64,000 bases of DNA, taken from an uncultured virus (IMG/VR IMGVR_UViG_3300035698_026266) (taxonomy: Duplodnaviria; Heunggongvirae; Uroviricota; Caudoviricetes). Position numbers and translations under genes: made by a program. The stretch lies in the IMG/VR virus record IMGVR_UViG_3300035698_026266; one strand, 5' to 3'. A model generated the notes under the pieces. It searched no databases, was not told where the DNA came from, and was given only the letters and a program-made list of their open reading frames with translations. Positions 5,199-60,674 of the stretch are shown in pieces. Each line of letters opens with the position of its first letter. Within the stretch, counting starts at the first letter, position 1.

Positions 5199-5226
5199 TT
5201 GACAAACGATTTGTTCGTGCTAAGAT
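5199..5226 (+). promoter_or_regulatory. Sigma70-like promoter of the leader peptide/tRNA array
   Basis: TTGACA-N16-TAAGAT with TG extended -10. Confidence 0.6.
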
Positions 5227-5279
5227 AAACGAGTTGAGAAAAAATTCAAAAACGTACTATATAATAAAAGAGAATTAAA

Positions 5280-5372
5280 ATGAAGATTCAGGTAAGACAT
5301 TTCGAAGCAGCAATAAACCCCGTTAGTGGGGCAGTAGCTGCCGAACGTCCAATGGGTGAAGATATCACCTGA
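5280..5372 (+). CDS. 30-aa leader peptide MKIQVRHFEAAINPVSGAVAAERPMGEDIT (below the ORF-track cutoff)
   Basis: ATG 5280 to TGA 5370-5372, immediately followed by alternative hairpins and a terminator. Confidence 0.7.
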   Translation: MKIQVRHFEAAINPVSGAVAAERPMGEDIT

Positions 5373-5465
5373 ATCTCAAGCGATAAAATAAGCTTGGGAT
5401 ATTAAACCTGAGCATTAAAGTTAGTATTAATCGTTCAGGCAAAAAAGTCTGAACGATTTTTTTTT
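5373..5465 (+). terminator. Attenuator: mutually exclusive hairpins ending in an intrinsic terminator abutting the first tRNA
   Basis: 1:2 = ATCTCAAGC/GCTTGGGAT; 2:3 = GCTTGGG/CCTGAGC; 3:4 = CCTGAGC/GTTCAGG; 4:5 = AATCGTTCAGGC/GTCTGAACGATT followed by a T run. Confidence 0.75.
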
Positions 5466-5538
5466 GGCGGTATAGCTTAGTGGTTAAAGCAGCGCCCTCA
5501 TAAGGCGAAGATCGTTGGTTCGAATCCAACTACCGCTA
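5466..5538 (+). tRNA. tRNA-Met(CAT), probably elongator (Ile2 not excluded)
   Basis: Cloverleaf; loop CT-CAT-AA; GGTTCGAATCC. Confidence 0.9.
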
Positions 5539-5664
5539 CTTTGGTAAAATAATTACCAAATCGTTTGTTGAAAAACAGCGAATTGTACTTTGAAAAGTGA
5601 ATATGCACTGTATAATAACGTTGATAAATGACTGGCTCATTATGCATGTAATGAGTCAGTTTGA

Positions 5665-5738
5665 CAGGGCGTGGCCTAATTTGGTAAGGCTCTTGGTTTG
5701 GGACCAAGCGATTGTAGGTTCAAATCCTACCGTCCTGA
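5665..5738 (+). tRNA. tRNA-Pro(TGG) copy 1
   Basis: CTTGG-TT-TGG-GA-CCAAG anticodon arm; acceptor CAGGGCG/CGTCCTG. Confidence 0.92.
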
Positions 5739-5773
5739 TTTGAAATTACCCATTCTCTGGCTTGCAAGACATT
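5733..5773 (+). repeat. 41-bp direct repeat, copy 2; overlaps the tRNA-Pro 3' end and the left arm of a 15-bp hairpin
   Basis: Matches 2262-2302; CTGGCTTGCAAGACA/TGTCTTGCAAGCCAG inverted repeat follows. Confidence 0.95.
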
Positions 5774-5800
5774 CTTCTTATGTCTTGCAAGCCAGTTTGA

Positions 5801-5874
5801 CAGAGCGTGGCCTAATTTGGTAAGGCTCTTGGTTTGGGACCAAGTGATTGCAGGTTCAAATCCTGTCGCTCTGA
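5801..5874 (+). tRNA. tRNA-Pro(TGG) copy 2
   Basis: Near-duplicate of 5665-5738 with compensatory stem changes. Confidence 0.92.
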
Positions 5875-5915
5875 TTTGTGTTGTTTAATTTAATTGTTTT
5901 GTAAAGGATAAAAAA

Positions 5916-6101
5916 ATGAGTGATAATTTTCGTTCAGTGTCAGATTTTTATGAAGAACTAACAGAAGAATTAAAGGAAGCTAGTGGGGAACGTTATATAG
6001 AAATTAGACGTGACTTGGCTTCAATAGGCAGTTTGAAAATGGAACAGTTGATATTGATTGACAAATTGATGAAAATAGAATTTGACAAAGGTTCTAAATA
6101 A
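5916..6101 (+). CDS. Hypothetical protein
   Basis: AAGGA SD, ATG ORF. Confidence 0.55.
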   Translation: MSDNFRSVSDFYEELTEELKEASGERYIEIRRDLASIGSLKMEQLILIDKLMKIEFDKGSK

Positions 6102-6303
6102 AAATGTTACGTCGTGGTATAAAAAAAAGCAGTTGGTTTCCAATAAGAAGATATAATACGGTTTCCTCTAGCGGTTTAATTTGCTTTTGGCATAGTTGTA
6201 CTAACATTCGAAACACTCGTAATTACTCCGATTCTGGTAAAACGAGAACGACCAGTAGTTTTGATTTTGTTTTACCAAATTATAGATTTTAATTTTTTAA
6301 TAC

Positions 6304-6375
6304 AGTCCCTTAATTCAGCGGTAGAATGTTGCTGTTACATGGCAAACGTCGTCGGTTCGAATCCGGCAGGGACTA
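6304..6375 (+). tRNA. tRNA-Val(TAC)
   Basis: Acceptor AGTCCCT/AGGGACT; loop GT-TAC-AT; GGTTCGAATCC. Confidence 0.85.
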
Positions 6376-6386
6376 TTGTTTAATTC

Positions 6387-6461
6387 GCCCCTATCGTCTA
6401 GTCTGGTTTAGGACATCTGATTTTCAGTCAGATTACATCGGTTCAAATCCGGTTAGGGGTA
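6387..6461 (+). tRNA. tRNA-Glu(TTC)
   Basis: TCTGA-TT-TTC-AG-TCAGA; GTCTAG...AGGAC D-arm. Confidence 0.9.
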
Positions 6462-6475
6462 TTTTTGAAATTTAG

Positions 6476-6546
6476 GCTCTTAAAGTGTTTCGGCAGCACG
6501 TCTGATTGTCTATCAGAGGGGCGGGGTTCGATTCCCCGTAAGAGCG
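6476..6546 (+). tRNA. tRNA-Asp(GTC)
   Basis: TCTGA-TT-GTC-TA-TCAGA; acceptor GCTCTTA/TAAGAGC, G73. Confidence 0.85.
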
Positions 6547-6551
6547 TTCAT

Positions 6552-6624
6552 GGTCCCTTAGTTCAGTTGGTAGAACGTTTGTACGACACACAAAAGGTCA
6601 TAGGTTCAAATCCTATAGGGGCCA
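6552..6624 (+). tRNA. tRNA-Val(GAC)
   Basis: TTTGT-AC-GAC-AC-ACAAA (C at position 33); canonical D and T arms. Confidence 0.85.
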
Positions 6625-6906
6625 TTTTGGAATTCTACTTGATGAAAAAAAATGAAACATTTTAAAAAATCAGCAATTTTAGGGGATTCTACTTTTAAGG
6701 AAAGAACAGTATTTGATACTTCTTTTCAATCTAAACTTTCGATTGGATTGTATTATAGTAGGATACATGAAAAGCCGTACAATACTGTAAATTGTTATAG
6801 GTATTGTATTTCTGCTTATACTGAAAATACATTCTTTAGTTTTAACAATTTTGTTTTTTCTCATATAGTTTTTAGAAAAGCCAGTTTCAGAAAGCCTTTT
6901 TATTGA

Positions 6907-7433: not shown

Positions 7434-7506
7434 CAGAATGTGGTCTAATTCGGCGATGATACTCGACATGGGTCGGGTAATACAGGTTCAAATCCTGTCA
7501 TTCTGA
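7434..7506 (+). tRNA. tRNA-Pro-like with a 6-nt anticodon loop (degenerate/atypical)
   Basis: Acceptor CAGAATG/CATTCTG; CTCGA-CATGGG-TCGGG; ACAGGTTCAAATCCTGT. Confidence 0.65.
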
Positions 7507-10544: not shown

Positions 10545-10775
10545 TTGGCAACAAGAAAAGAAATTAGAGAAGATTGGTTTGAACGTGGTGTTGAAGAAAA
10601 ACAAGACTATTTACTTGTCATATGCGACACGTCTAATTACGAAGATTATCCTGTTTTTTGTAAAGAAGAAGATTTGGATGATATGACAAAATATTATGAA
10701 AATGCATCCATGCAAGAAAAATTAGCAGTTTATAATCTTAAACTCAATCGTGAAAAACAGTTTAAAGATTTGTAG
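10545..10775 (+). CDS. Conserved phage hypothetical protein
   Basis: TTG start; LLVICDTSNYEDYPVF motif. Confidence 0.55.
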   Translation: MATRKEIREDWFERGVEEKQDYLLVICDTSNYEDYPVFCKEEDLDDMTKYYENASMQEKLAVYNLKLNREKQFKDL

Positions 10776-10845
10776 GGCCATAGTGAAATTGGGATCATCA
10801 GTCAATGGCATTGATTAGTTACCAGATCGTACCCAGTTGGCTCCA
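10774..10845 (+). tRNA. Degenerate tRNA-Ala(GGC)
   Basis: AGTCA-AT-GGC-AT-TGATT; 3' TGGCTCCA; mismatched T-stem and first acceptor pair. Confidence 0.6.
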
Positions 10846-11526
10846 TTAGAAAAAATTAATATTATGAATTTCATGCAAAAGTCAATGTCTAAATTTAGAG
10901 TGGTGCGAATATATGATTTTGATACAGAAGATTCTGTTAGTAAAGGGATTACATTTACACCTTTTTCTACATTAGATGGTTACCTATATATCGGGTGTCA
11001 AGGGTTTGTCAATAGAAAAAGTTTTTTCAATAAACATGGCGATTGGACAAGAATGTCTTGTTTAAGAGAAACGGAGATGTATTATTCTTTCAAATAATTT
11101 TTCACTAATTGTAATACTAATAATATTCTTGCTGTGTTTGTATATTATCATAAATACTCCAAATAATAATGATTATGTTAAAACACCTTTTGAAATATTG
11201 CACAAACAAAAGTTGTCAGCTATGAAAAAGAATCGTAAAAACAAGACAGTAAAAGAATGTAAATCTTATTTTTACAATAATATTACAAAAATAAGAAACT
11301 CATTATCAAATATGATGGATAACTCCGACGATAAAAAGAAGTAAATTTTGATGAAAATTACTAAAAAAAACGGTTTCATTAGCGGATGTTCGAGAACAAA
11401 TGATTCTGGTCGTCTACAATGTTATTGTGCTATTTACGAAGATGCTTTTTCAACTTCGGGAATGGAAATTTCTTTTTCTAAATACAATACAAAGGTAGGG
11501 AGTTCTTTTTCGAAAGAAGCAGCAAA

Positions 11527-21942: not shown

Positions 21943-24699
21943 ATGTCATATAAAGACACCATCTTGTTGCCTAAATCTAATTTTCCTATTAAGCCTAAAA
22001 AAATCTTTGAAGAAGAACAGGCCCGCTTAGCCAAATGGGGAAATCCATATCAAACAATGAGGCATAATAGAAATGGGAACAAAGAATTTGTTCTCCATGA
22101 TGGTCCCCCATATGCAAATGGCGATATTCATATGGGGCATGTTTTAAATAAAGTCATTAAGGATTTTATTGTAAAATATAAATATTTTGAGGGATTTAAG
22201 CCTCATTTTGTACCCGGATGGGATTGTCACGGTCTTCCAATTGAACGTGCTGTGATCTCATCAGGAATAAAAACTGATAATATTCCAGAATTTAGAAATC
22301 AATGTAGAAAATACGCTAATCTACAAGTTGAAAAACAAAAAGAACAGTTTAAAACATTAGGAATAATATCAGATTGGGATAATTGTTACAAAACAATGGA
22401 CTATGCTTTCGAAGCAATGGTTTATGACTCTTTGAGAAGACTCCATGCAAAGGGATTAATTCAAGAAAGACACAAACCTGTTTATTGGTCTTGGTCAGAG
22501 AAAACAGCATTAGCAGAAGCAGAAGTAGAACATATATATAAATCGGATTATTCTATCTATGTGTTGTTCGAAGCGATAGTTAATGAAAAGTCTAAAAAAT
22601 TATTTGAGAATTTGGGACCAATTAGTTTTTTAATTTGGACAACAACCCCTTGGACTTTGCCTGCCAACAGTGGTCTTGCAGTGCATCCCAACGAACGCTA
22701 TTTTGTCGTTGAAGCCGAACGATTCAATACAATAAAACAGGTTTTAGTATCTGAAAATAGATATGAAGATTTGTGTCATCAAGAGGTCATAGGTTCTGAA
22801 ATAATTGCTGCTTTTAGGGGATTTGAACTAATAAACTTAGATGTGTCCAATCCATTAAAAAATAAAAACATGTCTAATTCTAGAGTTGTTGCAGACGAAT
22901 CTGTCGATGTTTTATCTGGTACTGGCATTGTGCATTTGGCTCCCGGTCATGGCGTTAGTGATTATGAAATAGGATTAAAAAACAATTTACAAGTCCTTCA
23001 ACCAGTTGATGAAAGTGGCTATTACACAGATCATATTGAAGATTTAGTAAATTCTGATTTGTATCAATTAAAAGCAAAACATGTGTTTGAAGCGAATCAC
23101 TATTTAGTATCGCATTTAATGGAAAAAGGGTTCATTTTGAAAACCGAATCCATTAAACACAAATATCCTTATTGTGCAAGATCAGGCAAACCAATAATTT
23201 TCAGATCGACAAATCAATGGTTTGTTGATCTCTCTAAACTGAAAGAAACTAAAAAAGAATTAGATAACATTCAGTTCTTTCCGATACAAAGTAAAAACAG
23301 ACTTGAATCTTTTTTGAATAGAAAAGAATGGTGTATATCTAGGCAGCGTTCTTGGGGTGTGCCTATTGTTTGCAAAAAAGAAAATGACAAAATAGTATTT
23401 GAAGATTTGAAAGATCAAATTATTCAAAAAGGATTTGATTCTTTTTGGGAAAACGGCTCGCCGGATGTCCTTGATGTTTGGTTCGATAGTGGATTGACTT
23501 GGCAGACTTTAAATGGAGTACAAGCAGATTTATATGTTGAAGGGACGGATCAACATAGAGGATGGTTTCAGAGTTCTTTGCTTTTAGGTATGGCCCTAAA
23601 TGGCAAGTCTCCTTACAAGTCAGTATTGACACATGGATTTGTAGTAGATAAAAAAGGAGAAAAGTTAGCAAAATCTAAAGGCAATGGGGTGTCTCCTTCT
23701 AAAATAATGAAAAAATATGGCAATGAAGTTATAAGAAGTTGGATTGCTACTACTGATTTTTCTAAAGATGTTAAGTTTAGTGAAACCAACATAGAAAGAG
23801 CATCAGAAGTCTATTATAAAATAAGAAACACAATAAGATTTTTAATATCCAACATTGACGATTCTTTATTAATGAATCATTTTGAAACTGTCGATTTCAC
23901 TCAAAAAAGAAAATCTTTTTTGGTTAATGCTGATCCAATAAATTTTTGGATAGCACGTCAAATGGCTCTGGTCAGTTTAGAAATCAAAGAACATTTTGCA
24001 AATTATGAATTTTTCAAAGGGCTGTCAAAATTAAGTGAATTTATAAATACGAAATTGAGCAATGTATATTTTTCTTATATTAAAGATAACTTATATTGTG
24101 ATGACAAATATGATTTCTATAGAGGGAATATACAATTTTTATTGACAGAGATGTTGAATAGCATTTTTGTTCTAATAGCTCCAATTTTCACTCATACTGT
24201 TGATGAGGCTTTAGAAAGCTGTGTCCCTTGGTTGAAAAAATATTTAGGGGATGATGTTTTTGGGCTTAAAACAAATGGTTTATTTTGTGATGCAGATCAT
24301 GAAAACGGATATCTACTTTCAGATTGGTCGGGAAATAACGAAAAAGATGATATGGCAAATAAGTGTTTAAGATTAATTGAAACATTTAATGAATCGTTTA
24401 GAGAATTAAAAGAGTTGAAGCTTGTTAGAACACCATTAGAGTTAGAAGTTGTTTACCCTAGTGAACATTCTTGCCCTATTGATTGGCTGAAAAGCAAAGA
24501 AAATTTATTGGGAGTTGCCAAAATGACTACCAGTTTTAATAGCGAAATTGATCCATTAACGACTTTCGTATTTGATGGTCAAGAATATCATGTTTTTAGA
24601 ACCGGAAAATATAAATGTGAACGTTGTTGGAAATATAATGCTCAAGAAGAAAAAGGGTTGTGTTTGAGATGTGATAAATGTTTATCGTTTGCTAAATAG
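21943..24699 (+). CDS. ileS: Isoleucyl-tRNA synthetase (type 1)
   Basis: LHDGPPYANG..HMGH, GWDCHGLPIE, WTTTPWTLPAN, WCISRQRSWGVP, EGTDQHRGWFQS, KLAKS, C-terminal CERC...CLRC. Confidence 0.97.
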   Translation: MSYKDTILLPKSNFPIKPKKIFEEEQARLAKWGNPYQTMRHNRNGNKEFVLHDGPPYANGDIHMGHVLNKVIKDFIVKYKYFEGFKPHFVPGWDCHGLPIERAVISSGIKTDNIPEFRNQCRKYANLQVEKQKEQFKTLGIISDWDNCYKTMDYAFEAMVYDSLRRLHAKGLIQERHKPVYWSWSEKTALAEAEVEHIYKSDYSIYVLFEAIVNEKSKKLFENLGPISFLIWTTTPWTLPANSGLAVHPNERYFVVEAERFNTIKQVLVSENRYEDLCHQEVIGSEIIAAFRGFELINLDVSNPLKNKNMSNSRVVADESVDVLSGTGIVHLAPGHGVSDYEIGLKNNLQVLQPVDESGYYTDHIEDLVNSDLYQLKAKHVFEANHYLVSHLMEKGFILKTESIKHKYPYCARSGKPIIFRSTNQWFVDLSKLKETKKELDNIQFFPIQSKNRLESFLNRKEWCISRQRSWGVPIVCKKENDKIVFEDLKDQIIQKGFDSFWENGSPDVLDVWFDSGLTWQTLNGVQADLYVEGTDQHRGWFQSSLLLGMALNGKSPYKSVLTHGFVVDKKGEKLAKSKGNGVSPSKIMKKYGNEVIRSWIATTDFSKDVKFSETNIERASEVYYKIRNTIRFLISNIDDSLLMNHFETVDFTQKRKSFLVNADPINFWIARQMALVSLEIKEHFANYEFFKGLSKLSEFINTKLSNVYFSYIKDNLYCDDKYDFYRGNIQFLLTEMLNSIFVLIAPIFTHTVDEALESCVPWLKKYLGDDVFGLKTNGLFCDADHENGYLLSDWSGNNEKDDMANKCLRLIETFNESFRELKELKLVRTPLELEVVYPSEHSCPIDWLKSKENLLGVAKMTTSFNSEIDPLTTFVFDGQEYHVFRTGKYKCERCWKYNAQEEKGLCLRCDKCLSFAK

Positions 24700-24832: not shown

Positions 24833-25628
24833 ATGAAAAAGAAAAAACATAATTGTAAAAACAAAGTAGAAACATCCGACCTCCAAGCTAAACTTGCTGA
24901 AATGGAAAGGCAAGTGGAGTGTCTTTGACCCATCTAAAGCTAAAGAGCTAGTGATTGAAATACAATTTGGCGAAGGCGGCAATGACAGCAAGTCTTTCGT
25001 AGCTGAATTGGCAACTACTTATATTAAATATGCACAAAAATTAAACATAGAATGCAAAACTCTTGATGCCTCTGAAGGGCATGTTTTGTTGAAGTTTTCA
25101 AGTGCTAATGTTTGGCAGGCTTTTAAAAACGAGTCTGGAAAGCATGTAGTTCAACGAGTCCCCCCGACAGAAAACAAAGGTAGAAGGCACACTTCTATTA
25201 TTTCTGTGGCGGTACTTCCAATTCTGGATTTACCATATGCATTATTGAAACGTGATGAAATAGAAATAAAAACACAGGGCGGGCATGGTGCAGGCGGTCA
25301 GCATCAAAACACTACTGATTCTGCTGTGAGAATGACTCATATTTCTACAGGAATTTCTGTTTTTATTAATGGCAGAAAGCAAAATCAAAACAAAAAAGAA
25401 GCACTTAAAATTTTAACTGCTCGTGTAAACGACTTTTATTTAACTAAAATAAAATCTGCTCATAGTGAGTTAAGATATAAACAAATGGGCGGCGGTAGCA
25501 GGTCTGGTAAAATCAGAACATATGATTTTGTTAATTCAAGAGTTACAGATCACAATTTGAAGCTTAAAACTAGGCAACTAGAAACATTTATGAAGGGGAG
25601 TTTTGACGTTTTATTTGATAAAAAGTAA
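24833..25628 (+). CDS. Class I peptide chain release factor, N-terminally shortened, expressed via a predicted +1 frameshift at CTT-TGA-C (24923-24929)
   Basis: ORF0 24833-24928 ends GTG GAG TGT CTT TGA C; +1 frame has GEGG, ESGKHVVQRVPPTENKGRRHTS, GAGGQHQN, KIRTYDF. Confidence 0.85.
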
Positions 25629-40508: not shown

Positions 40509-41453
40509 ATGTTGATTTGGCCTCTTGAACAAAAAACAGGTTTTTTTGCCTTGCACCCTTTGGACGAAACATTGGTTGAAGGTTATGAATACAAAACGTT
40601 AAACGGCTTACATTGTTATCATTTTACAAATGAAAGGCATTGGTGGCCTTTTTATTATGCCGATCCACCGAAATGGCTTATCAATGGATTTTCTTTTGAC
40701 TCTGATGAGATTTGTTTAACTCAAATTAGAAACTTGATTTTAAATAAATCTCTTAGCGTTTTGTGTCCTAACAGTGATTTTGTTTCGATATTAAAATGTT
40801 CACAAGATTCTAAAAAAGAAATATATAATTGGTTAGAATTTATTGGTTTAAAATCAGAAGTAATTTGGACAGATGAAAAAGTTGATTTTTTGGTTTCTGA
40901 AAATAGAAATTTCAAATGCGATTTTTATTTGCCGATGGGTGAAGTCATATGTGACAAACCTGCAAGAATCATATTTGATTCTATTGTTGAATTAATTAAA
41001 TCTAAAAAAATAGCATGGAATATTTTAGCATGGGAATTATCTTCCTTTAAAAGAAGTGAGGATATCGTTTTAGACAATTGTTTTTTAGACAAATGGATTA
41101 AAACATCATCCCCTGCCATTTATATTTCAAGTACTTTAAATAAATTATACAATGATTTTAAATTAGTAAAAGATAAAGAAATAGGCAGTCCTAACCATTT
41201 GACTGAAAACGATTTAGATTTATTGGGATTTGCAAACTATTTTCCTTATTACAAATTTGAATCTATTTCCCACAAGAACACTAGTTTTATTGCAAAATAC
41301 GCTCTTTCACTAACTATAAAAATAAGAAAACATTACAATAAAGAAACAATAGTTGAAGGGCGTCCTGAATTTAGATTTACCATGCTAAAAGCAGCAGAGT
41401 CTTTAGAAAAATGTATGGATGTTATAGGAATGTTTAAAATAATTAATATTTAA
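40509..41453 (+). CDS. Degenerate arginyl-tRNA synthetase-like protein (DALR-like C-terminus)
   Basis: INGFS...IRNLIL.KSL, SPAIYISST, IRKHYNKETIVEG...LEKCMDVIGM; no intact HIGH motif. Confidence 0.45.
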   Translation: MLIWPLEQKTGFFALHPLDETLVEGYEYKTLNGLHCYHFTNERHWWPFYYADPPKWLINGFSFDSDEICLTQIRNLILNKSLSVLCPNSDFVSILKCSQDSKKEIYNWLEFIGLKSEVIWTDEKVDFLVSENRNFKCDFYLPMGEVICDKPARIIFDSIVELIKSKKIAWNILAWELSSFKRSEDIVLDNCFLDKWIKTSSPAIYISSTLNKLYNDFKLVKDKEIGSPNHLTENDLDLLGFANYFPYYKFESISHKNTSFIAKYALSLTIKIRKHYNKETIVEGRPEFRFTMLKAAESLEKCMDVIGMFKIINI

Positions 41454-44197: not shown

Positions 44198-45481
44198 ATG
44201 AGCGAAGATAAAGGCAGCAGCCGTAAAAAGAAATCAGAACATTGTAGTTTTTGTGGGAAACCAAATGTCAAGTATGGTCCTTTTGTTAGCGGGCCTAAAG
44301 AGGACGGACAACAGCCACATATTTGTTATATTTGTGCCGAAAAAGCTTATGCAATCTTTGTGGAAGAATTGAAATATAAAACGGAATGTGATTTTAAAGT
44401 GGAAGTCCCATCACCATCAGAAATTATTAGAAATCTAGACACTTATATTGTGGATCAAAGTATTGCCAAAGAAACATTGGCATTAGCGGTTGTAAACCAT
44501 TATAAAAGGTTGCTGCATAGTAGTAGCGACAAATATGGCAGTGCAGAACTGGACAAATCCAATGTTCTTTTAATTGGTCCTACTGGTTGTGGAAAAACTC
44601 TTTTAGCACAACGTATAGCAAAGAATCTTAACATTCCATTTGCTATTGGAGACGCCACTGCTTTAACGGAAGCAGGTTATGTTGGCGAAGATGTGGAAAA
44701 TTTACTTTTGAAGTTGATTCGTGCAGCAGACAACGACATAGAAGCTGCTCAAAGAGGCATTATATATTTGGATGAAGTCGACAAAATAGGTTCGACTCAT
44801 GGAAATGTTTCTATAACTAGAGATGTTAGTGGAGAGGGTGTTCAACAATCATTGCTTAAATTGCTCGAAGGAACGATTGCTAATGTGCCGCCTCAAGGGG
44901 GCAGGAAACATCCAGAGCAAACCTACATTGAAATTGACACAAGTCAAATTTTGTTTATCTGTGCTGGAACCTTTGTAGGACTAGAAGATATTATCAAAAG
45001 AAGATTAGGCAAACAAACAATTGGATTTGGTAGTGAAGTCAACAATATAGATGATGCTCAAGAAACAAAAAAAATAATGGAAGAAGTAACTCCAGAAGAT
45101 TTGCATGAATTTGGGCTTATTCCTGAATTGGTTGGTCGTTTGCCTGTAATCACAACTGTGCATCAATTAGACATTGACACTTTGTGTAAAATTATGACTG
45201 ATCCTGAAAACTCTTTAATAAAACAATATCAAAAGTTGTTTTTGATTGATGGAATTGTACTTACTTTTGAAAAAGATGCTATTAAAGCTATGGGCGAGCG
45301 TGCTTTAAAATTAAAAACAGGAGCAAGGGCGTTGAGATCGGTTGTTGAAAACATTGTTAAACCATTTATGCTTGACATTGAAAATATGCCTAATGGAAGC
45401 GAAATCGTTATCACAGGACAGGCTGTTCGTGAAGGGTCCGCAAAACACGTTGTTAAAATAAAACAAACAGCAGCAGCATAA
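44198..45481 (+). CDS. clpX: ATP-dependent Clp protease ATP-binding subunit ClpX
   Basis: CSFCG Zn finger, GPTGCGKT, EAGYVGEDVE, RDVSGEGVQQ, GGRKHP, IGF loop, GARALR. Confidence 0.97.
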   Translation: MSEDKGSSRKKKSEHCSFCGKPNVKYGPFVSGPKEDGQQPHICYICAEKAYAIFVEELKYKTECDFKVEVPSPSEIIRNLDTYIVDQSIAKETLALAVVNHYKRLLHSSSDKYGSAELDKSNVLLIGPTGCGKTLLAQRIAKNLNIPFAIGDATALTEAGYVGEDVENLLLKLIRAADNDIEAAQRGIIYLDEVDKIGSTHGNVSITRDVSGEGVQQSLLKLLEGTIANVPPQGGRKHPEQTYIEIDTSQILFICAGTFVGLEDIIKRRLGKQTIGFGSEVNNIDDAQETKKIMEEVTPEDLHEFGLIPELVGRLPVITTVHQLDIDTLCKIMTDPENSLIKQYQKLFLIDGIVLTFEKDAIKAMGERALKLKTGARALRSVVENIVKPFMLDIENMPNGSEIVITGQAVREGSAKHVVKIKQTAAA

Positions 45482-46079: not shown

Positions 46080-47153
46080 ATGAATAAGAAATTTAACAAA
46101 AAAGAAAACCACAAAGAAGAATTGAAATCCTATTTTAATATGGATTTAAATCATATAGATTATGAGGAATTTTCAAAAAAGAATTCTCATATCGTGTATG
46201 CGAAATTTCCAAAATCTGATATGGATTTTGGAAATTTAAAAGGAACTTGGAACGCTATTCTATCCATGAAAAGAGTAGAACAATACAATTTAAAAGCCAA
46301 TAGTAAATTTACTCTATCGACAAAAGAATTGTATGACTTTTTTATGCGATTAAATTATGCAAAAAAAAGAGTTTCTTCATTGCGTGACTTGAATCAAAAA
46401 AGAAACTTGTCACTACCAGAAACTTTAAGAGCTTTAAAGTGGGGTCGCATATTAAAAGAAACTTTTGATGCCATTTGTGTTTCCAACATTGGTTTAGTTT
46501 TTTCTATGGGGAAAAGGTATGGTTATTTCAAAAACACTCTCGATATCCTTGACACTGTGTCCTGTGGATTATATGGATTGATGTGTGCGGTTAACAGATA
46601 TGATTGCAAAATGGGATTTGCTTTTTCAACATATTCTTGTCGAGCCATATTACAATCTTTTAATCGAAGTTGGACAAAAGAAGCAAAATACTTGCTGCGA
46701 GAAAACAGAATAGATTACACCGATGGCGGGTGGACGCATCCAACAGATTCCAGCATGAACGAGAATCTTTATTCGGAAGATGTAAAGGTTTTACGTGAAA
46801 TAATTGTTGAAAACAAAGCTGAATTAGACGAAAATGAAAAGCTTGTTTTAGTTTATAGATTTCCTTTTAGAAAAGAGTTTTTAACTTATAAAGAAGAAAA
46901 AAGTTTAGAAAAATATCTTAAGAAAACAAAAAGGGCACCTAGAAAACACGGCACGCCGTTGACTTTAAATGAAGCTGGTCATTTGTTGTGCCTTACAAGA
47001 GAACGCATAAGACAAATCCAAAACAAAGCGTTGGAAAAAATAAAACCTTTATTGGAGGCGAAATTGCAATATAAAAATGTTTTAGAAGAAAATCCTGACA
47101 ATGAAGAATGTATTGATTTTACGAAAAGAAACGAAGAATTGGTTTTAGTATAG
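46080..47153 (+). CDS. Sigma-70 family RNA polymerase sigma factor
   Basis: Region 2 NIGLVFSMGKRY...GLMCAVNRYD...FSTYSCRAI; region 4 LTLNEAG...LTRERIRQIQNKALEK. Confidence 0.9.
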   Translation: MNKKFNKKENHKEELKSYFNMDLNHIDYEEFSKKNSHIVYAKFPKSDMDFGNLKGTWNAILSMKRVEQYNLKANSKFTLSTKELYDFFMRLNYAKKRVSSLRDLNQKRNLSLPETLRALKWGRILKETFDAICVSNIGLVFSMGKRYGYFKNTLDILDTVSCGLYGLMCAVNRYDCKMGFAFSTYSCRAILQSFNRSWTKEAKYLLRENRIDYTDGGWTHPTDSSMNENLYSEDVKVLREIIVENKAELDENEKLVLVYRFPFRKEFLTYKEEKSLEKYLKKTKRAPRKHGTPLTLNEAGHLLCLTRERIRQIQNKALEKIKPLLEAKLQYKNVLEENPDNEECIDFTKRNEELVLV

Positions 47154-49436: not shown

Positions 49437-49520
49437 TAGGAGAAGGCAAAAGCGGCTAAAATGCAGACGCCTTTTGTCCGATATATATCGTATACTAATT
49501 ATACTAGAAAGCAACTAAAA

Positions 49521-51128
49521 ATGAGTAAATCCACATATCCAAATGGGCATATGCCAGAAGATTTTGACTGTTTTGGTCCCCCGGCCATTAGAGATGGCGA
49601 ATTTGAGGAAACAATGATAGCTGATTTGGGATGTTTTAAACAACCTACTCCTGACAATCCACAAGGAGTTGATTCAAATAAATATTATCATGGTTCTGTC
49701 GTCCAAAGCAAGAAAAATGGACAATGGTATGTTTATCTTGAATGGGGTCGTACATCTGCTAAAAATCCGCAATTTCAGTTTGTGGAATGCTCAAATAAAA
49801 ATGAAGCAAAAGCAAAATATTGCAAGCAACTTCATTCTAAAAACGATAATAGGGGTATGTGGGACCACCATCCAGTTTTAGGAAAAATGTTGAAACCCAA
49901 ACCAAATAAGGATTGTTATTTGGTACGTCCACAAGCGGCCCGAAGTACAGGACTTCCAAGCGCTAAAACAATATCCATTACAGAAAAAACTATTGTTTCC
50001 AAGAACAACAAAAAGACGTTGAAGAAAAATCTGGATGTGCAGACTACTTCCCTTTTGAAAGATTTGAATATTGGCACATTGAATTATACAAGAACATCAA
50101 TGGCCGACAGTGCGTTGCCGACTTTAGACGCCATCAAAGAAGGTAGAGACATTCTAGACGCTGCCATGAATAGAGTGGCTAATTTTGGCAACAATATAGA
50201 TGATCAAATTTCAGACTCGGAATTAATAAGTTTAACAAGTCTGATTTATAGCAGGATTCCTAAAAAGAAAAACAGAGGGGTCGACGCCGCAGAATGGATT
50301 TTGTCACAAAACAATATTTTTGCTTGGAAGCAGGACATAGATGCTTTTGAATCCGCTGTGAATTCACAAGAATATGAAATTGAAGACGATCCGATGCAGG
50401 GCATGGACGTTAAGATGTTCTGGCTTGCTCCTAATTCTAAAGAAGGTGAATTTGTTCATAGTTGGGTTAAACAATCCACATTAAACAAACATTCTTATCT
50501 TGGCAAAATGAATGTGATAAATGTATGGACAGTTACTAGAGAATCCGAAAACAAAGCTTTTCTGGTTGAACAGGAAAACATATTAAAGGAAACGAAAAAC
50601 AAAGACATTTCTGAACGTCCGTTAAATCAACCTAAAAACAGATTGGATTTAGACACGTCAGATGTTTTGAAATATCATAAAAGCAACACATCTTTGTTGT
50701 TTCATGGTACTAGAAGTTGTAACGTTTCTGGTTTGTTGCGAGAAGGGTTTAGATTCCCAAAAGAATTAAGAAACGTTGCCATTAATGGGGCTATGTTTAG
50801 TGGCGGTGCAGGTGGTGTTTATGCAGCAGACGACATAAAAAAGAGTGTTGGTTATACTTCTTATGAAAAAGGGATATATTCACAAGGCAAAGGTGGCATA
50901 AAAGGGAGAAAGGCTTTTATGTTTGTGTGTGATTTTGTTTTAGGCAATCCTCATGTTGCTCCTGAAGCTTATCCATACACAAAATATCCAACTAATACAC
51001 ATAGTATTTTTGGCAAGGCAGGGTATTCTGGATTTGGATACGGTGATAGAAAACTTCAAAATAATGAATGGATTATTTTGAAAAAGTCTCAATATCAATT
51101 TAAATATTTGATCGAATTTAACTTTTAA
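49521..51128 (+). CDS. WGR-domain poly(ADP-ribose) polymerase-like protein
   Basis: SNKYY...EWGRT (WGR), helical domain, LLFHGTR, GAMF.GG..GVYAAD..KS.GY, NNEWI (H-Y-E triad). Confidence 0.85.
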   Translation: MSKSTYPNGHMPEDFDCFGPPAIRDGEFEETMIADLGCFKQPTPDNPQGVDSNKYYHGSVVQSKKNGQWYVYLEWGRTSAKNPQFQFVECSNKNEAKAKYCKQLHSKNDNRGMWDHHPVLGKMLKPKPNKDCYLVRPQAARSTGLPSAKTISITEKTIVSKNNKKTLKKNLDVQTTSLLKDLNIGTLNYTRTSMADSALPTLDAIKEGRDILDAAMNRVANFGNNIDDQISDSELISLTSLIYSRIPKKKNRGVDAAEWILSQNNIFAWKQDIDAFESAVNSQEYEIEDDPMQGMDVKMFWLAPNSKEGEFVHSWVKQSTLNKHSYLGKMNVINVWTVTRESENKAFLVEQENILKETKNKDISERPLNQPKNRLDLDTSDVLKYHKSNTSLLFHGTRSCNVSGLLREGFRFPKELRNVAINGAMFSGGAGGVYAADDIKKSVGYTSYEKGIYSQGKGGIKGRKAFMFVCDFVLGNPHVAPEAYPYTKYPTNTHSIFGKAGYSGFGYGDRKLQNNEWIILKKSQYQFKYLIEFNF

Positions 51129-51862: not shown

Positions 51863-52873
51863 ATGCAAACAAATTGGTCTAAAATACATGGCATGTTTCT
51901 TGGAATTCAAATAGGGGATGCTTTAGGCATGCCAGTAGAATCGAGAACTGCCAAAGAAATAAAAGAAAAATATGGCAGAATTGAAAGAATGATAAGTCCA
52001 AAAGATCATAAGTATTTAAGCGATAATAAAGCAGGGACTTATACGGACGACACTCAACTGACATTAGCTGTGGCAAAAGGTCTTATTGCTGATCCTTTAA
52101 ATATGGATTCGCAGGTCAAATTTCATTTAGACGCTTTCAACAAATCAACAAGTGGTTGGGGTAGAAGCACTAGAGAAGCCGTTAGCAGGCTTGCCAACGG
52201 ATGCACTTGGCAAACATCAGGTCAACTCAACGGTGAGTTTACAGGCAAAGGAAATGGGGTTTCTATGAAAGTATCCCCGGTTGCAGCTTTGTTTGATTTG
52301 TATGATGAAAATAAAGTTGTGTCCTTTATAAAGAAATTGTCTTTAATGACACATCGTACTAATATGGCAGTCATATCAGGCATGACGCAATCTTTTGCTG
52401 TTCGTTATTGTTTAATGACAAATGAAAAAGAATTCAATTCAAATACTTTTATAGAATGGGTTCTATCGGGTGCTAACATTGGCAATAATGAATTTCCTGA
52501 TGTTTGTGAAGAAAAAGATAATTTATATCTAAGATTAAAATCACTAAAAAAACACAATGAGTATACCACCAAAAAAATAATTGAAGATTATAATGGCGGC
52601 ACATGTTATTGTTACAATTCTTTGCCTTTTACATATTTGTTTTTTCTGAAAGATTACGATTCAATTGACGCAATGTACAACGTCATAGCAGCAGGGGGTG
52701 ATACAGATACCAATGCGTCTATGGTTGGCGGATTGTTGGGAGCGTTGCATGGCTATACTGTTTTCCCCGAACATTTAATTGCTACTCTTGATGAAAAAGA
52801 AAGAAAAGAAGTTCTTGAAGTAAGCAAGTTGTTTTACAAGAGTTTTTCAAAAACGACAATCGGTTTTTCATAA
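51863..52873 (+). CDS. ADP-ribosylglycohydrolase
   Basis: IGDALGMPVE, YTDDTQL, GNG..M, GGDTDTNASMVGGLLGA. Confidence 0.93.
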   Translation: MQTNWSKIHGMFLGIQIGDALGMPVESRTAKEIKEKYGRIERMISPKDHKYLSDNKAGTYTDDTQLTLAVAKGLIADPLNMDSQVKFHLDAFNKSTSGWGRSTREAVSRLANGCTWQTSGQLNGEFTGKGNGVSMKVSPVAALFDLYDENKVVSFIKKLSLMTHRTNMAVISGMTQSFAVRYCLMTNEKEFNSNTFIEWVLSGANIGNNEFPDVCEEKDNLYLRLKSLKKHNEYTTKKIIEDYNGGTCYCYNSLPFTYLFFLKDYDSIDAMYNVIAAGGDTDTNASMVGGLLGALHGYTVFPEHLIATLDEKERKEVLEVSKLFYKSFSKTTIGFS

Positions 52874-58551: not shown

Positions 58552-59595
58552 ATGAAAAAAATAGTTTATCAAGCTGTCATTTGTGGAATAGAAGTTAAAG
58601 GTCTTTTGGTTTTGAAAAGCAATTATGACGGCTATGATCCACATGCCAATGAAAGATTTCTTAAAGGAACTCTAATTGCTTACGTTCATAAAGATCGTTT
58701 AAGTGAAGAACAAATTGATAAAATACTAAACGGCCAAAACAAAAGTTTAACTGTGCAGTGGCCGTTGAAAGAACGTAATGAAAACCCTGTTGAAAATAAA
58801 AAAGATGTTCAAAAAGGGCAAAACGACAACTTTGAACCTAGCGAGTATCAAAAAACAATATATAATATTGTAGAAAAACAAGAAAATCATATTTTGATTA
58901 AAGCTTTAGCAGGTTCTGGTAAAACCTCTACGCTTATATGGCTTGTGCAACAGATGCATGCTAAAGGGATGACTAAAGGTAAAAAAATAGTCTATCTTGC
59001 TTTTAATAAATCCATTCAAAAAGAATTAAGTGAGAAATTAATAGGTACTGGTGTGCCTGCGCTCACAACGCATTCTTTTGGGTTTAAAGCAATAAAAAAA
59101 CATTATAATTCAGATATAAAACCTACTAATGGCAGGGTAGCAAGCGATACGTTTTTAAAACTTGTGTGTGAATTAAAAGGGTTAAAACAAAACATAAAGG
59201 GATTGAGAGCGGCAAAAGAAACAGAAGAATATAGACTGCGATCTGCTGTTTTAGAATTAGTAGGTTATATTAAGAATTGGGCTATTCTTCCTAGTTTTGA
59301 CGACTATTGGGTTTTTGACGACAAACAAAAATCGATAATAGAAGGATTTATTTCTGATTACGAAATAGAGATAGATGAAGGTTTTACTTCTGTTGACTTG
59401 GTGGATTTTGCCTGTGATGTGGTGGCAAGAAATTTGCCATTATCAGATTCCAATATTGTGGAAATAGACTACGACGACATGCTGTATTTGCCGTTGGCAA
59501 TGAAATTGCCTTTGCCAAAATATGATCTCGTACTTACTGATGAAAGTCAAGATTTTAACGCTTGCCAAATATCCATATTACAAAAAATCATTTAA
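58552..59595 (+). CDS. UvrD/Rep SF1 helicase, N-terminal half (motifs Q to II)
   Basis: PSEYQ, ALAGSGKT, LAFNK, TTHSFG, IDYDDML, DESQD, then stop. Confidence 0.88.
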   Translation: MKKIVYQAVICGIEVKGLLVLKSNYDGYDPHANERFLKGTLIAYVHKDRLSEEQIDKILNGQNKSLTVQWPLKERNENPVENKKDVQKGQNDNFEPSEYQKTIYNIVEKQENHILIKALAGSGKTSTLIWLVQQMHAKGMTKGKKIVYLAFNKSIQKELSEKLIGTGVPALTTHSFGFKAIKKHYNSDIKPTNGRVASDTFLKLVCELKGLKQNIKGLRAAKETEEYRLRSAVLELVGYIKNWAILPSFDDYWVFDDKQKSIIEGFISDYEIEIDEGFTSVDLVDFACDVVARNLPLSDSNIVEIDYDDMLYLPLAMKLPLPKYDLVLTDESQDFNACQISILQKII

Positions 59596-59660: not shown

Positions 59661-60674
59661 ATGAGCGGCAGAATAATAGTAGTTGGCGATCCACGTCAGG
59701 CTTTATACCGTTTTCGTGGTGCTGACGCAAAAGCTTTTGAACGTATAGAAGAAATGTTTTCTAAAGATAAAAGAGGTATCGTAACTTGTGAATTACCAAT
59801 AAATTATCGTTGTTCTAAAAAGATAATTAACCATTCAAAACTTTGGGTAAAAGAGTTGCAGGGTTTCAAAAAAGAAGAAGGAATAGTTGATGAAATTTAT
59901 TACAATGAATCTTTACAAAGAGCAAATAATGACAATGTTGATATTGGTCTAAAAGATGGCTGTTTAGGAGAAAGTCGAGTATTAGAAAACGCTACGTTTG
60001 CTTTTTTGTGCAGAATAAACGTGTCTTTAGTTATAACAGCATACAGATTAATGGGACTAAAAAAGAAAGTTTGCATTATAGGGCAAAGCCAATTTGGAAC
60101 CCCATTAGTTAATTTAATTGAAAAGTTATGTTATCCTAAAAATAAAGTTCTTCATACAAACAGGATTAGCGATAGAATAGATGCGTCTGGAAGCATTGTT
60201 GAAGAAGGGCTTTTAACAAGATTAAGGTCTGATTTTAGGATTCAAAGCGAAAAACTAAAATCAGATGGTTTTGAAAGGAAATTGGAGTCTTTGCAGCAAA
60301 ACGTTGAATGTATAGAAGTCATTGCGTTAAACGCAAAAGATGATAAAGTAACTACAGTTTTAGAAGACATTGAGGAATTGTTTACAGAAGAACCTGAACC
60401 CGGCGTCATAACTTTAAGCACGATTCACAAATCTAAAGGATTGGAATGGGATGTCGTTTTTATTCTTAGGCCAGATTTAATGCCACATCCCAAAGCAAAA
60501 AGTTGTGAGGAACTAGAACAAGAAAAAAATGCTCAATATGTAGCAGCGACTAGAGCTAAAAACAGATTGTATTATGTTAAGAATTGGCCGGGTGAAAACT
60601 TTTCGTATTCTAGACCTGTTAGCGAGTACGAAAAACCCGAAACAATCAGCAAAGAGAGCGACATTAAAGATTAG
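59661..60674 (+). CDS. UvrD/Rep SF1 helicase, C-terminal half (motifs III to VI)
   Basis: VGDPRQALYRFRGA, NYRC, LCRIN, STIHKSKGLEWD, YVAATRAK. Confidence 0.88.
   Translation: MSGRIIVVGDPRQALYRFRGADAKAFERIEEMFSKDKRGIVTCELPINYRCSKKIINHSKLWVKELQGFKKEEGIVDEIYYNESLQRANNDNVDIGLKDGCLGESRVLENATFAFLCRINVSLVITAYRLMGLKKKVCIIGQSQFGTPLVNLIEKLCYPKNKVLHTNRISDRIDASGSIVEEGLLTRLRSDFRIQSEKLKSDGFERKLESLQQNVECIEVIALNAKDDKVTTVLEDIEELFTEEPEPGVITLSTIHKSKGLEWDVVFILRPDLMPHPKAKSCEELEQEKNAQYVAATRAKNRLYYVKNWPGENFSYSRPVSEYEKPETISKESDIKD

Follow-up and report, generated by a model that had tools for sequence, protein, structure and literature searches.

Immediately before its first tRNA gene, a 64,000-nt stretch of DNA from an uncultured virus of the Caudoviricetes (IMG/VR record IMGVR_UViG_3300035698_026266; one strand, hereafter the window) carries an element on the + strand (5199-5465) that comprises a promoter-like sequence, a 30-codon open reading frame (ORF), a chain of alternative RNA helices and an intrinsic terminator. 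We consider it moderately probable that this element is a ribosome-mediated leader-peptide transcription attenuator, matched to the amino acids of the tRNA array and placed before the tRNA genes of a large phage, and that it controls at least tRNA-Met and probably the adjoining tRNAs. A preliminary description of this DNA had proposed such an attenuator. Our analysis supports this reading in part, through the non-random helices, the coding-like ORF, the match with the array and an association of the same kind in independent phages, whereas the proposed matching at the level of codons is not supported.

Leader ORF and its match to the tRNA genes

The leader ORF occupies 5280-5372 on the + strand, as previously described, starts with ATG, encodes MKIQVRHFEAAINPVSGAVAAERPMGEDIT and ends with the stop codon TGA. 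Its codon usage scores 0.391 per codon against a mean of 0.413 for real genes, whereas the remaining two frames yield -1.06 and -0.80. This places it among the top 5.3% of 374 small ORFs and mid-range among real genes. By these measures the leader ORF looks coding, and its translation is predicted. A weak Shine-Dalgarno (SD)-like sequence, AAGAGA (5267-5273, + strand), is located 7 nt 5' of the ATG and pairs with a generic anti-SD at -2.9 kcal/mol, a score that is equalled or exceeded by 22% of 596 small ORFs. No homologous peptide was found among 1.84 billion representatives beyond the identical peptide and one repeat protein; the latter gave many weak matches to its repeats by BLASTP and was dismissed as a chance match. 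Upstream of the ORF, the promoter proposed earlier was indeed recognized as a sigma-70-type sequence on the + strand (5199-5226), consisting of TTGACA (5199-5204), a 16-nt spacer and a TG-extended TAAGAT (5221-5226), with 10 of 12 positions matching the consensus. Promoter-like matches occur window-wide at chance level (76 found vs. 69.2 expected in this AT-rich DNA), and the promoter at 5199 is to be read as a consensus match only; among the matches listed, none falls on the + strand between 5227 and 5465.

Downstream of the terminator, ARAGORN called 13 tRNA genes between 5466 and 18749, 12 of which are supported by Rfam. The first of these (5466-5539, + strand; Rfam 72.9 bits) has the anticodon CAT and is referred to here as tRNA-Met, although its identity as Met, initiator or Ile2 is not settled. 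It is followed by tRNAs for Pro, Pro, Val, Glu, Asp and Val (5665-6625, + strand) and by later tRNAs at 7434, 7696, 10773, 12036, 12685 and 18674. The tRNA at 7434-7506 (Rfam 45.4 bits) has an abnormal anticodon loop and its amino acid is not assignable, and the tRNA-Ala(GGC) at 10773-10846 is an ARAGORN call that has no Rfam match at E<=1. Two hairpins, at 5630-5660 (-20.6 kcal/mol) and 5757-5796 (about -28 kcal/mol), stop 4-5 nt short of the two copies of tRNA-Pro and are both followed by TTTGA rather than by a U-tract; the combination of hairpin and tRNA-Pro resembles a duplicated unit.

According to ARAGORN the assignable tRNAs of the window carry exactly G, A, V, E, R, P, M and D. Codons 17-28 of the leader (5328-5363, + strand) read G A V A A E R P M G E D, and all 12 residues belong to this set of eight amino acids, as had been claimed; the exact equality between the amino acids of these codons and those of the window's tRNAs holds for the assignable tRNAs, with the unassignable one at 7434 besides. 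Of 20000 shuffles of these 36 nt, a single one (5e-5) kept all 12 residues within the set, and the remaining five frames of this segment gave 2-7 of 12. Runs of at least 12 residues from the set occur three times in the six frames of the 64 kb and in none of the 45 long ORFs, whose longest such run has 9 residues. For the leader as a whole, 19 of 29 residues fall in the eight-amino-acid set, a score not attained by any of the 1209 other small ORFs of the window (p_emp 0.0008), and when only the tRNAs within 2.5 kb are counted (M, P, V, E, D, A) the match is 15/29 (p 0.0017). Among overlapping 29-residue windows of real ORFs, 108 of 11126 (approximately 1%) reach 19 residues from the set, and the composition of the leader is, compared with real proteins, unusual rather than extreme. 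As in leader-peptide attenuators, the leader thus has codons that correspond to the genes presumed to be regulated, at the level of amino acids. At the level of codons the cognate match claimed in the preliminary description could not be substantiated, with 8 exact matches vs. 6.74 expected from the codon usage of the phage (P=0.30).

Pairing segments and proposed mechanism

The region between the ORF and the tRNA genes ends in an intrinsic terminator (5429-5465, + strand), formed by segment 4 (5429-5440), a 6-nt loop, segment 5 (5447-5458) and a U-tract. The hairpin has 12 pairs, 5 of which are G-C, and the run of nine T is the longest among the hairpin-plus-T-run sites listed in the window. 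The terminator ends at 5465 as reported before, and tRNA-Met begins at 5466, with no gap between the two. Three further segments precede the terminator on the + strand: segment 1 (5373-5381), immediately past the stop codon and forming the 1:2 hairpin; segment 2 (5392-5400), which can pair with either 1 or 3; and segment 3 (5406-5418), the 5' strand of the antiterminator. All four pairings among the five segments that had been described (1:2, 2:3, 3:4 and 4:5) were recovered, with hairpin energies of -10.9, -7.5, -10.7 and -16.1 kcal/mol, respectively. Overlooked at that stage were the pairings of a segment 0 within the ORF (codons 2-5; 5284-5293, + strand), which is able to form a perfect 10-bp helix with 5367-5376 or a 7-bp helix, termed P1, with 5406-5412 of segment 3. 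Two more hairpins (5296-5349 and 5354-5370, + strand) are situated within the ORF.

This chain of alternative helices is not a product of chance. In dinucleotide shuffles of 5373-5428 (56 nt) the energy of 3:4 was reached in 1.0% and that of 2:3 in 0.5% of the cases, and all three helices together in none of 3000. The minimum-energy fold of 5270-5470 (-65.7 kcal/mol, z -7.30) contains a four-way junction closed by P1, and the junction itself (5284-5415) has a folding energy of -46 kcal/mol (z -5.16). As the minus strand gives folds that are just as good, folding is unable to assign the strand.

From these components we infer translation of the ORF, stalling, a relay and readthrough of the terminator, in the following way. 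Transcription from the promoter at 5199 would yield a leader transcript of approximately 230 nt with a 30-codon ORF rich in the amino acids of the downstream tRNAs. If translation is fluent, the ribosome at the UGA (5370-5372) would cover segment 1, upon which 2:3 could pair, segment 4 would be left free and the 4:5 terminator would halt RNA polymerase at 5465. If decoding is slow in codons 17 to about 26, segment 1 would be exposed and would pair as 1:2, the 3:4 antiterminator could form, and transcription would enter tRNA-Met and at least the neighboring tRNAs. In untranslated RNA, the 5' end of the ORF would pair with segment 3 in P1, favoring termination. The most economical role for such a switch would be feedback, in which tRNAs are made when the decoding capacity for their amino acids is short.

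Folds of RNA prefixes of increasing length bear on several of these steps. In untranslated RNA 1:2 forms first and P1 once segment 3 emerges; the 3:4 antiterminator is favored only at prefix lengths 5440-5448, and the terminator and P1 return once segment 5 is made. The folding with masked positions that the preliminary description had suggested gave a divided answer: with a ribosome footprint over codons 17-28 both 1:2 and 3:4 form in nascent-RNA folds, which fits the model, whereas equilibrium folds do not distinguish the two states (see below). With the footprint at the stop codon, 1:2 is lost, and 2:3 appears when 5' pairs are allowed. As modeled, the proposed relay is self-consistent, with an OFF branch that depends on the order of folding.

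Small ORFs before tRNA arrays of other phages

Independent evidence was sought in other phage contigs by two pattern scans of IMG/VR that had a run of seven T before a tRNA T-arm as their sole criterion. The resulting 160 loci contain 96 non-redundant tRNAs with the T-run at most 5 nt from their 5' end, and 59 of these 96, many of them lone tRNA-Arg(TCT) genes, have an abutting hairpin of -8 kcal/mol or better. With a hairpin plus T-run this common at tRNA 5' ends, and with 17 of the 59 located directly after ordinary genes, many phage tRNAs seem to rely on terminator readthrough. For 36 units whose arrays represent 2-9 amino acids, the top-scoring small ORF with its end 30-160 nt upstream was compared with the small ORFs of the same locus, two units without a small ORF being set to p=1. 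In six of the 36 the upstream ORF reached p<=0.05 (1.8 expected; binomial 0.008), where the small same-locus nulls limit how low the p-value of an individual locus can reach.

The remaining 34 units were merged into 26 families, of which the first member was kept (L178, L145, L146, L174, L176, L159, L160 and L200 were dropped). The summed score of the small ORFs with their own arrays amounts to 31.3, compared with 14.2 +/- 2.9 when the arrays are permuted among the 26 families, and this value was reached in none of 5000 permutations. In seven families the own array is the best of all 26, although one of these (L138) has to be discounted as a frame that runs through tRNA genes. This shows that small ORFs before terminator-abutted tRNA arrays track the amino acids of their own array. 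Under the same scoring the window leader obtains 2.26 with its own array and only one of the 26 foreign arrays scores as high; the leader is thus matched to its own array over others as well as over the small ORFs of the same DNA.

The match is often apparent from the peptides themselves. The leader MRTILNILVSSSRSSSGHVIRLCL precedes an array of Arg-Ser-Asn-Asn-Ile-Arg, the leader MKTLNTTNSSTAPVNLGGLLL one of Thr-Asn-Pro-Ser-Ser, and a family of leaders ending in ..CWPP.. or ..PIYWYPI.. precedes arrays of Cys, Trp, Pro, Tyr and Ile. Pairs of leaders differ where their arrays do: L155 (array I, K, Q, R) has ..KQIRKQIQ.. and L160 (K, Q, R) has ..RQTRKQIQ.., with T instead of I where the Ile tRNA is absent, and L139 (I, P, W, Y) has PIYWYPI while L146 (I, P, W) has PIFWCPI, with F and C instead of Y where the Tyr tRNA is absent. 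Fourteen leaders, chosen by eye after the scores had been seen (L013, L053, L057, L139, L145, L146, L150, L155, L159, L160, L168, L176, L178 and L206), have ORFs that start 116-166 nt and end 54-70 nt before the first tRNA, upstream of a terminator abutting this tRNA, and that carry the amino acids of the array in their central part. In most of their prefix folds the 5' arm of the terminator pairs back into or near the last codons of the ORF. Codon-level matching is uneven among these leaders (60 observed vs. 48.8 expected, z 2.29): L155 and L160 show it strongly, L013 and L168 not at all. In several of the 14 leaders the ATG is immediately preceded by a promoter-like -10 or by a Bacteroidetes-type TAnnTTTG.

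Comparison with known systems

Leader-peptide attenuators are well known from enterobacteria, where they precede trp, his, leu and pheA and, in multivalent form, thr and ilvGMEDA. Like the attenuators of these amino-acid operons, the window element has a promoter-like sequence, a short ORF that would report on charged tRNA, hairpins that would exclude one another and, ahead of the genes to be controlled, an intrinsic terminator, and like the thr and ilv leaders it would sample several amino acids. It differs from them in that the genes to be regulated are phage tRNAs and not biosynthetic enzymes, that eight amino acids are sampled with mixed synonymous codons and no tandem repeats, that there are five segments with a proposed relay instead of four, and that the terminator directly adjoins a tRNA at its mature 5' end; a sequence relationship is lacking. 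The proposed mechanism is already known in kind, while the tRNA-gene target and the matching to an array are new. Among the literature searched, mostly titles and the opening lines of abstracts, no published leader-peptide attenuator of tRNA genes was found.

The closest counterparts are the leaders from other phages described above (e.g., L013, L053, L139/L146, L155/L160, L168 and L206), which likewise have approximately 20-32 codons, often an MK start and a central cluster of array residues; their terminator is 0-5 nt away from the first tRNA, and prefix folds contain an antiterminator. The window leader resembles L168 (array A, E, M, P, V), whose cluster VVAEPMAEA likewise samples mixed synonymous codons. 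Sequence similarity between these leaders and the window leader was not found. They also differ in architecture, as the stop codon falls 54-70 nt before the tRNA in the other leaders and, in most of their prefix folds, within or close to the antiterminator strand. In the window leader it is 93 nt from the tRNA and apart from this strand, which starts 35 nt past the stop; a 39-nt stretch with hairpin 1:2 intervenes. The sequence ACCTGA occurs twice, as the last codon plus stop (5367-5372) and again within segment 3 (5406-5411), exactly 39 nt or 13 codons apart, and the TGA of the second copy ends 54 nt before the tRNA, i.e., at the usual stop position of the leaders of other phages. From this one sequence we infer that the 39-nt stretch with hairpin 1:2 may have been inserted or duplicated into a canonical leader, and that 2:3 would now relay the arrival of the ribosome to the antiterminator.

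T-box riboswitches also sense the status of tRNA and choose between terminator and antiterminator before translation-related genes. However, they bind the tRNA directly and without a ribosome, and the 3:4 helix of the window has an 8-nt loop and a single-base bulge where T-box antiterminators have a 7-nt bulge. A T-box identity was rejected, as the Rfam T-box model has no match to 5199-5465 at E<=1. Non-tRNA transcripts interleaved with phage tRNA genes are represented by the species 1 and 2 RNAs of T4 and by the small ORFs, promoters and terminators in the tRNA region of T5, for which we know of no description of amino-acid matching or of a switch. An attenuator-like leader of pheV in Escherichia coli, considered as a possible precedent, was discarded, as the K-12 sequence shows a plain promoter region only.

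Alternative explanations

A number of observations weigh against interpreting the element as an array-matched attenuator. With respect to the match, the eight-residue set includes every one of the five GNN families, accounts for 38% of residues overall and is thus not very specific; the correspondence holds at the amino-acid level only, with codon-level matching absent, and it falls to 10/29 (p 0.014) when only the first seven tRNAs are counted. With respect to translation, the SD of -2.9 kcal/mol compares poorly with the -4 to -9 kcal/mol of most ATG-started long ORFs listed, and the start region adjoins a 10-bp stem that begins at +5. With respect to switching, equilibrium folds yield the terminator at every ribosome position, so that any switching must be kinetic, as in classical attenuators; with the footprint at the stop and 5' pairs forbidden, 3:4 (-11.4 kcal/mol) is more stable than 2:3, which makes the OFF relay dependent on folding order; and P1 might keep segment 3 sequestered behind a stalled ribosome. 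The leaders of other phages stop 54-70 nt from the tRNA, whereas that of the window stops 93 nt away and needs the relay. The tRNAs are, furthermore, scattered among other genes over 13 kb and TTGAAA-15-TATAAT precedes tRNA-Pro, and gating may end at tRNA-Met rather than cover the array. Finally, the element is a single sequence: searches of phage records, IMG/VR, JGI metagenomes and protein libraries yielded no relatives in which the ORF might be conserved or the stems might covary.

It could be argued that the element is a stand-alone small gene or small RNA with a promoter and terminator of its own, that the terminator merely ends this unit or the upstream gene for a 202-aa protein, that tRNA-Met is obtained by constitutive leak-through and RNase P, and that the match is a by-product of a gene-like ORF with G at first codon positions. 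Elsewhere 17 of the 59 tRNA-abutting terminators simply follow ORFs of >60 aa, and the arrangement alone, therefore, does not imply regulation; a gene-caller product identical to the leader ORF is present in a protein library (P0002), strong hairpins without U-tracts also stand before tRNA-Pro (5630-5660 and 5757-5796), and the match itself is attained by approximately 1% of 29-residue windows of real proteins. We nevertheless regard this explanation as unlikely, as it accounts neither for the non-random chain of 1:2, 2:3 and 3:4, nor for the location of the best array-matched small ORF out of 1210, nor for the association across independent phages. Mere chance, i.e., a structured spacer with features put together in hindsight, is in our view improbable: the element is indeed a single sequence without conservation, in which the codon window and the segments were chosen after the sequence had been seen, but the shuffles, the controls drawn from the window itself and the test on independent phages all speak against it.

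Conditional termination might, on the other hand, be achieved without the ORF. The P1-closed four-way junction (5287-5412) could act as an aptamer or protein-binding domain, or an antiterminator protein of the phage could suppress termination at a set time of infection, the ORF being incidental in either case. The 3' strand of P1 is at the same time the antiterminator strand, which is the usual layout of an OFF riboswitch (z -5.16 and -7.30 for the folds given above): stabilization of P1 would sequester segment 3 and allow termination. The weak SD also speaks for this explanation, as does the presence of a sigma factor gene in the window; in lambdoid Stx phages tRNA genes lie behind the Q-controlled terminator tR'. 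However, at E<=1 the leader matches none of the Rfam families, including T-box, the 2:3 pairing (reached in 0.5% of shuffles) would have no role, and the frame-specific coding signal and the array match would have to be coincidence, so that we judge this explanation to be rather improbable. The array-matched attenuator remains our preferred reading of the element.

Implications

Whether phages regulate their own tRNA genes at all, and by what means, has long been unclear. If the attenuator is real, phages would gauge decoding capacity directly and adjust the supply of tRNAs through a sensor read by the ribosome, which would tie codon-usage compensation to recent work on phage tRNAs that escape tRNA-cleaving defenses. 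The window would add to this a structurally distinct relay version, present in an orphan salt-lake phage that also encodes an isoleucyl-tRNA synthetase (IleRS) and an RF1-like gene. For annotation, a small ORF followed by a terminator that abuts the first tRNA is offered as a rule, and such leaders could serve as compact, testable parts that report on the availability of selected tRNAs. Sensing the cleavage of host tRNAs is a possible function, and to our knowledge the amino acids sampled are not among the targets of known anticodon nucleases. A wider proposal, which we consider speculative and on present grounds doubtful, would be that many phage lineages use array-spelled attenuators and that the window holds a five-segment relay variant sensing damage to the host tRNA pool (anticodon nucleases, uncharged tRNA) and switching on replacement tRNAs only when decoding fails.

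Source phage and genomic context

The window has a G+C content of 32% and is interpreted as a portion of the genome of a large orphan phage. The closest records to its proteins come from very large phages and from bacteria, at protein identities of 33-51%, and near-identical DNA is contained at low depth in salt-lake metagenome runs. Contigs from four of these runs revealed no variants, and in the two runs in which the leader is covered it is matched exactly. Other searches for relatives returned little: by blastn of the window against phage records only the tRNAs were matched, an exact 28-mer and a tRNA 26-mer from the window are both absent from IMG/VR, where three window proteins queried also had no match, and the 202-aa protein upstream of the leader found only itself among 5.8 billion clusters. 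The radical-SAM protein yielded in JGI metagenomes only two identical fragments and one unrelated match of 32%. A motif-with-gaps pattern gave four matches in IMG/VR, none of them with a tRNA, and these were taken as chance.

Genes related to translation include those for a full-length IleRS (21943-24699) and for a truncated RF1-like release factor (24894-25628), which keeps a PxT-type motif (PPT) and GGQ but lacks the N-terminal domain. A third one encodes a protein (40509-41453) in which a DALR anticodon-binding domain is present. Within the window an RF1-like gene is present and no RF2-like gene, and the stop codon of the leader ORF is UGA. Reassignment of a stop codon in this phage was considered and found unlikely, as TGA terminates 7 of the 45 long ORFs. 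ClpX (44198-45481), a sigma factor (46080-47153), a phage lysozyme domain and HNH endonucleases are also encoded. A protein with PARP-catalytic and WGR domains (49461-51128) lies near an ADP-ribosylglycohydrolase (51863-52873), and the two may possibly form a writer/eraser pair for ADP-ribosylation. A DNA helicase (phrog_1967) is divided over the adjoining ORFs 58552-59595 and 59661-60674, which cover profile positions 133-385 and 391-679, respectively.

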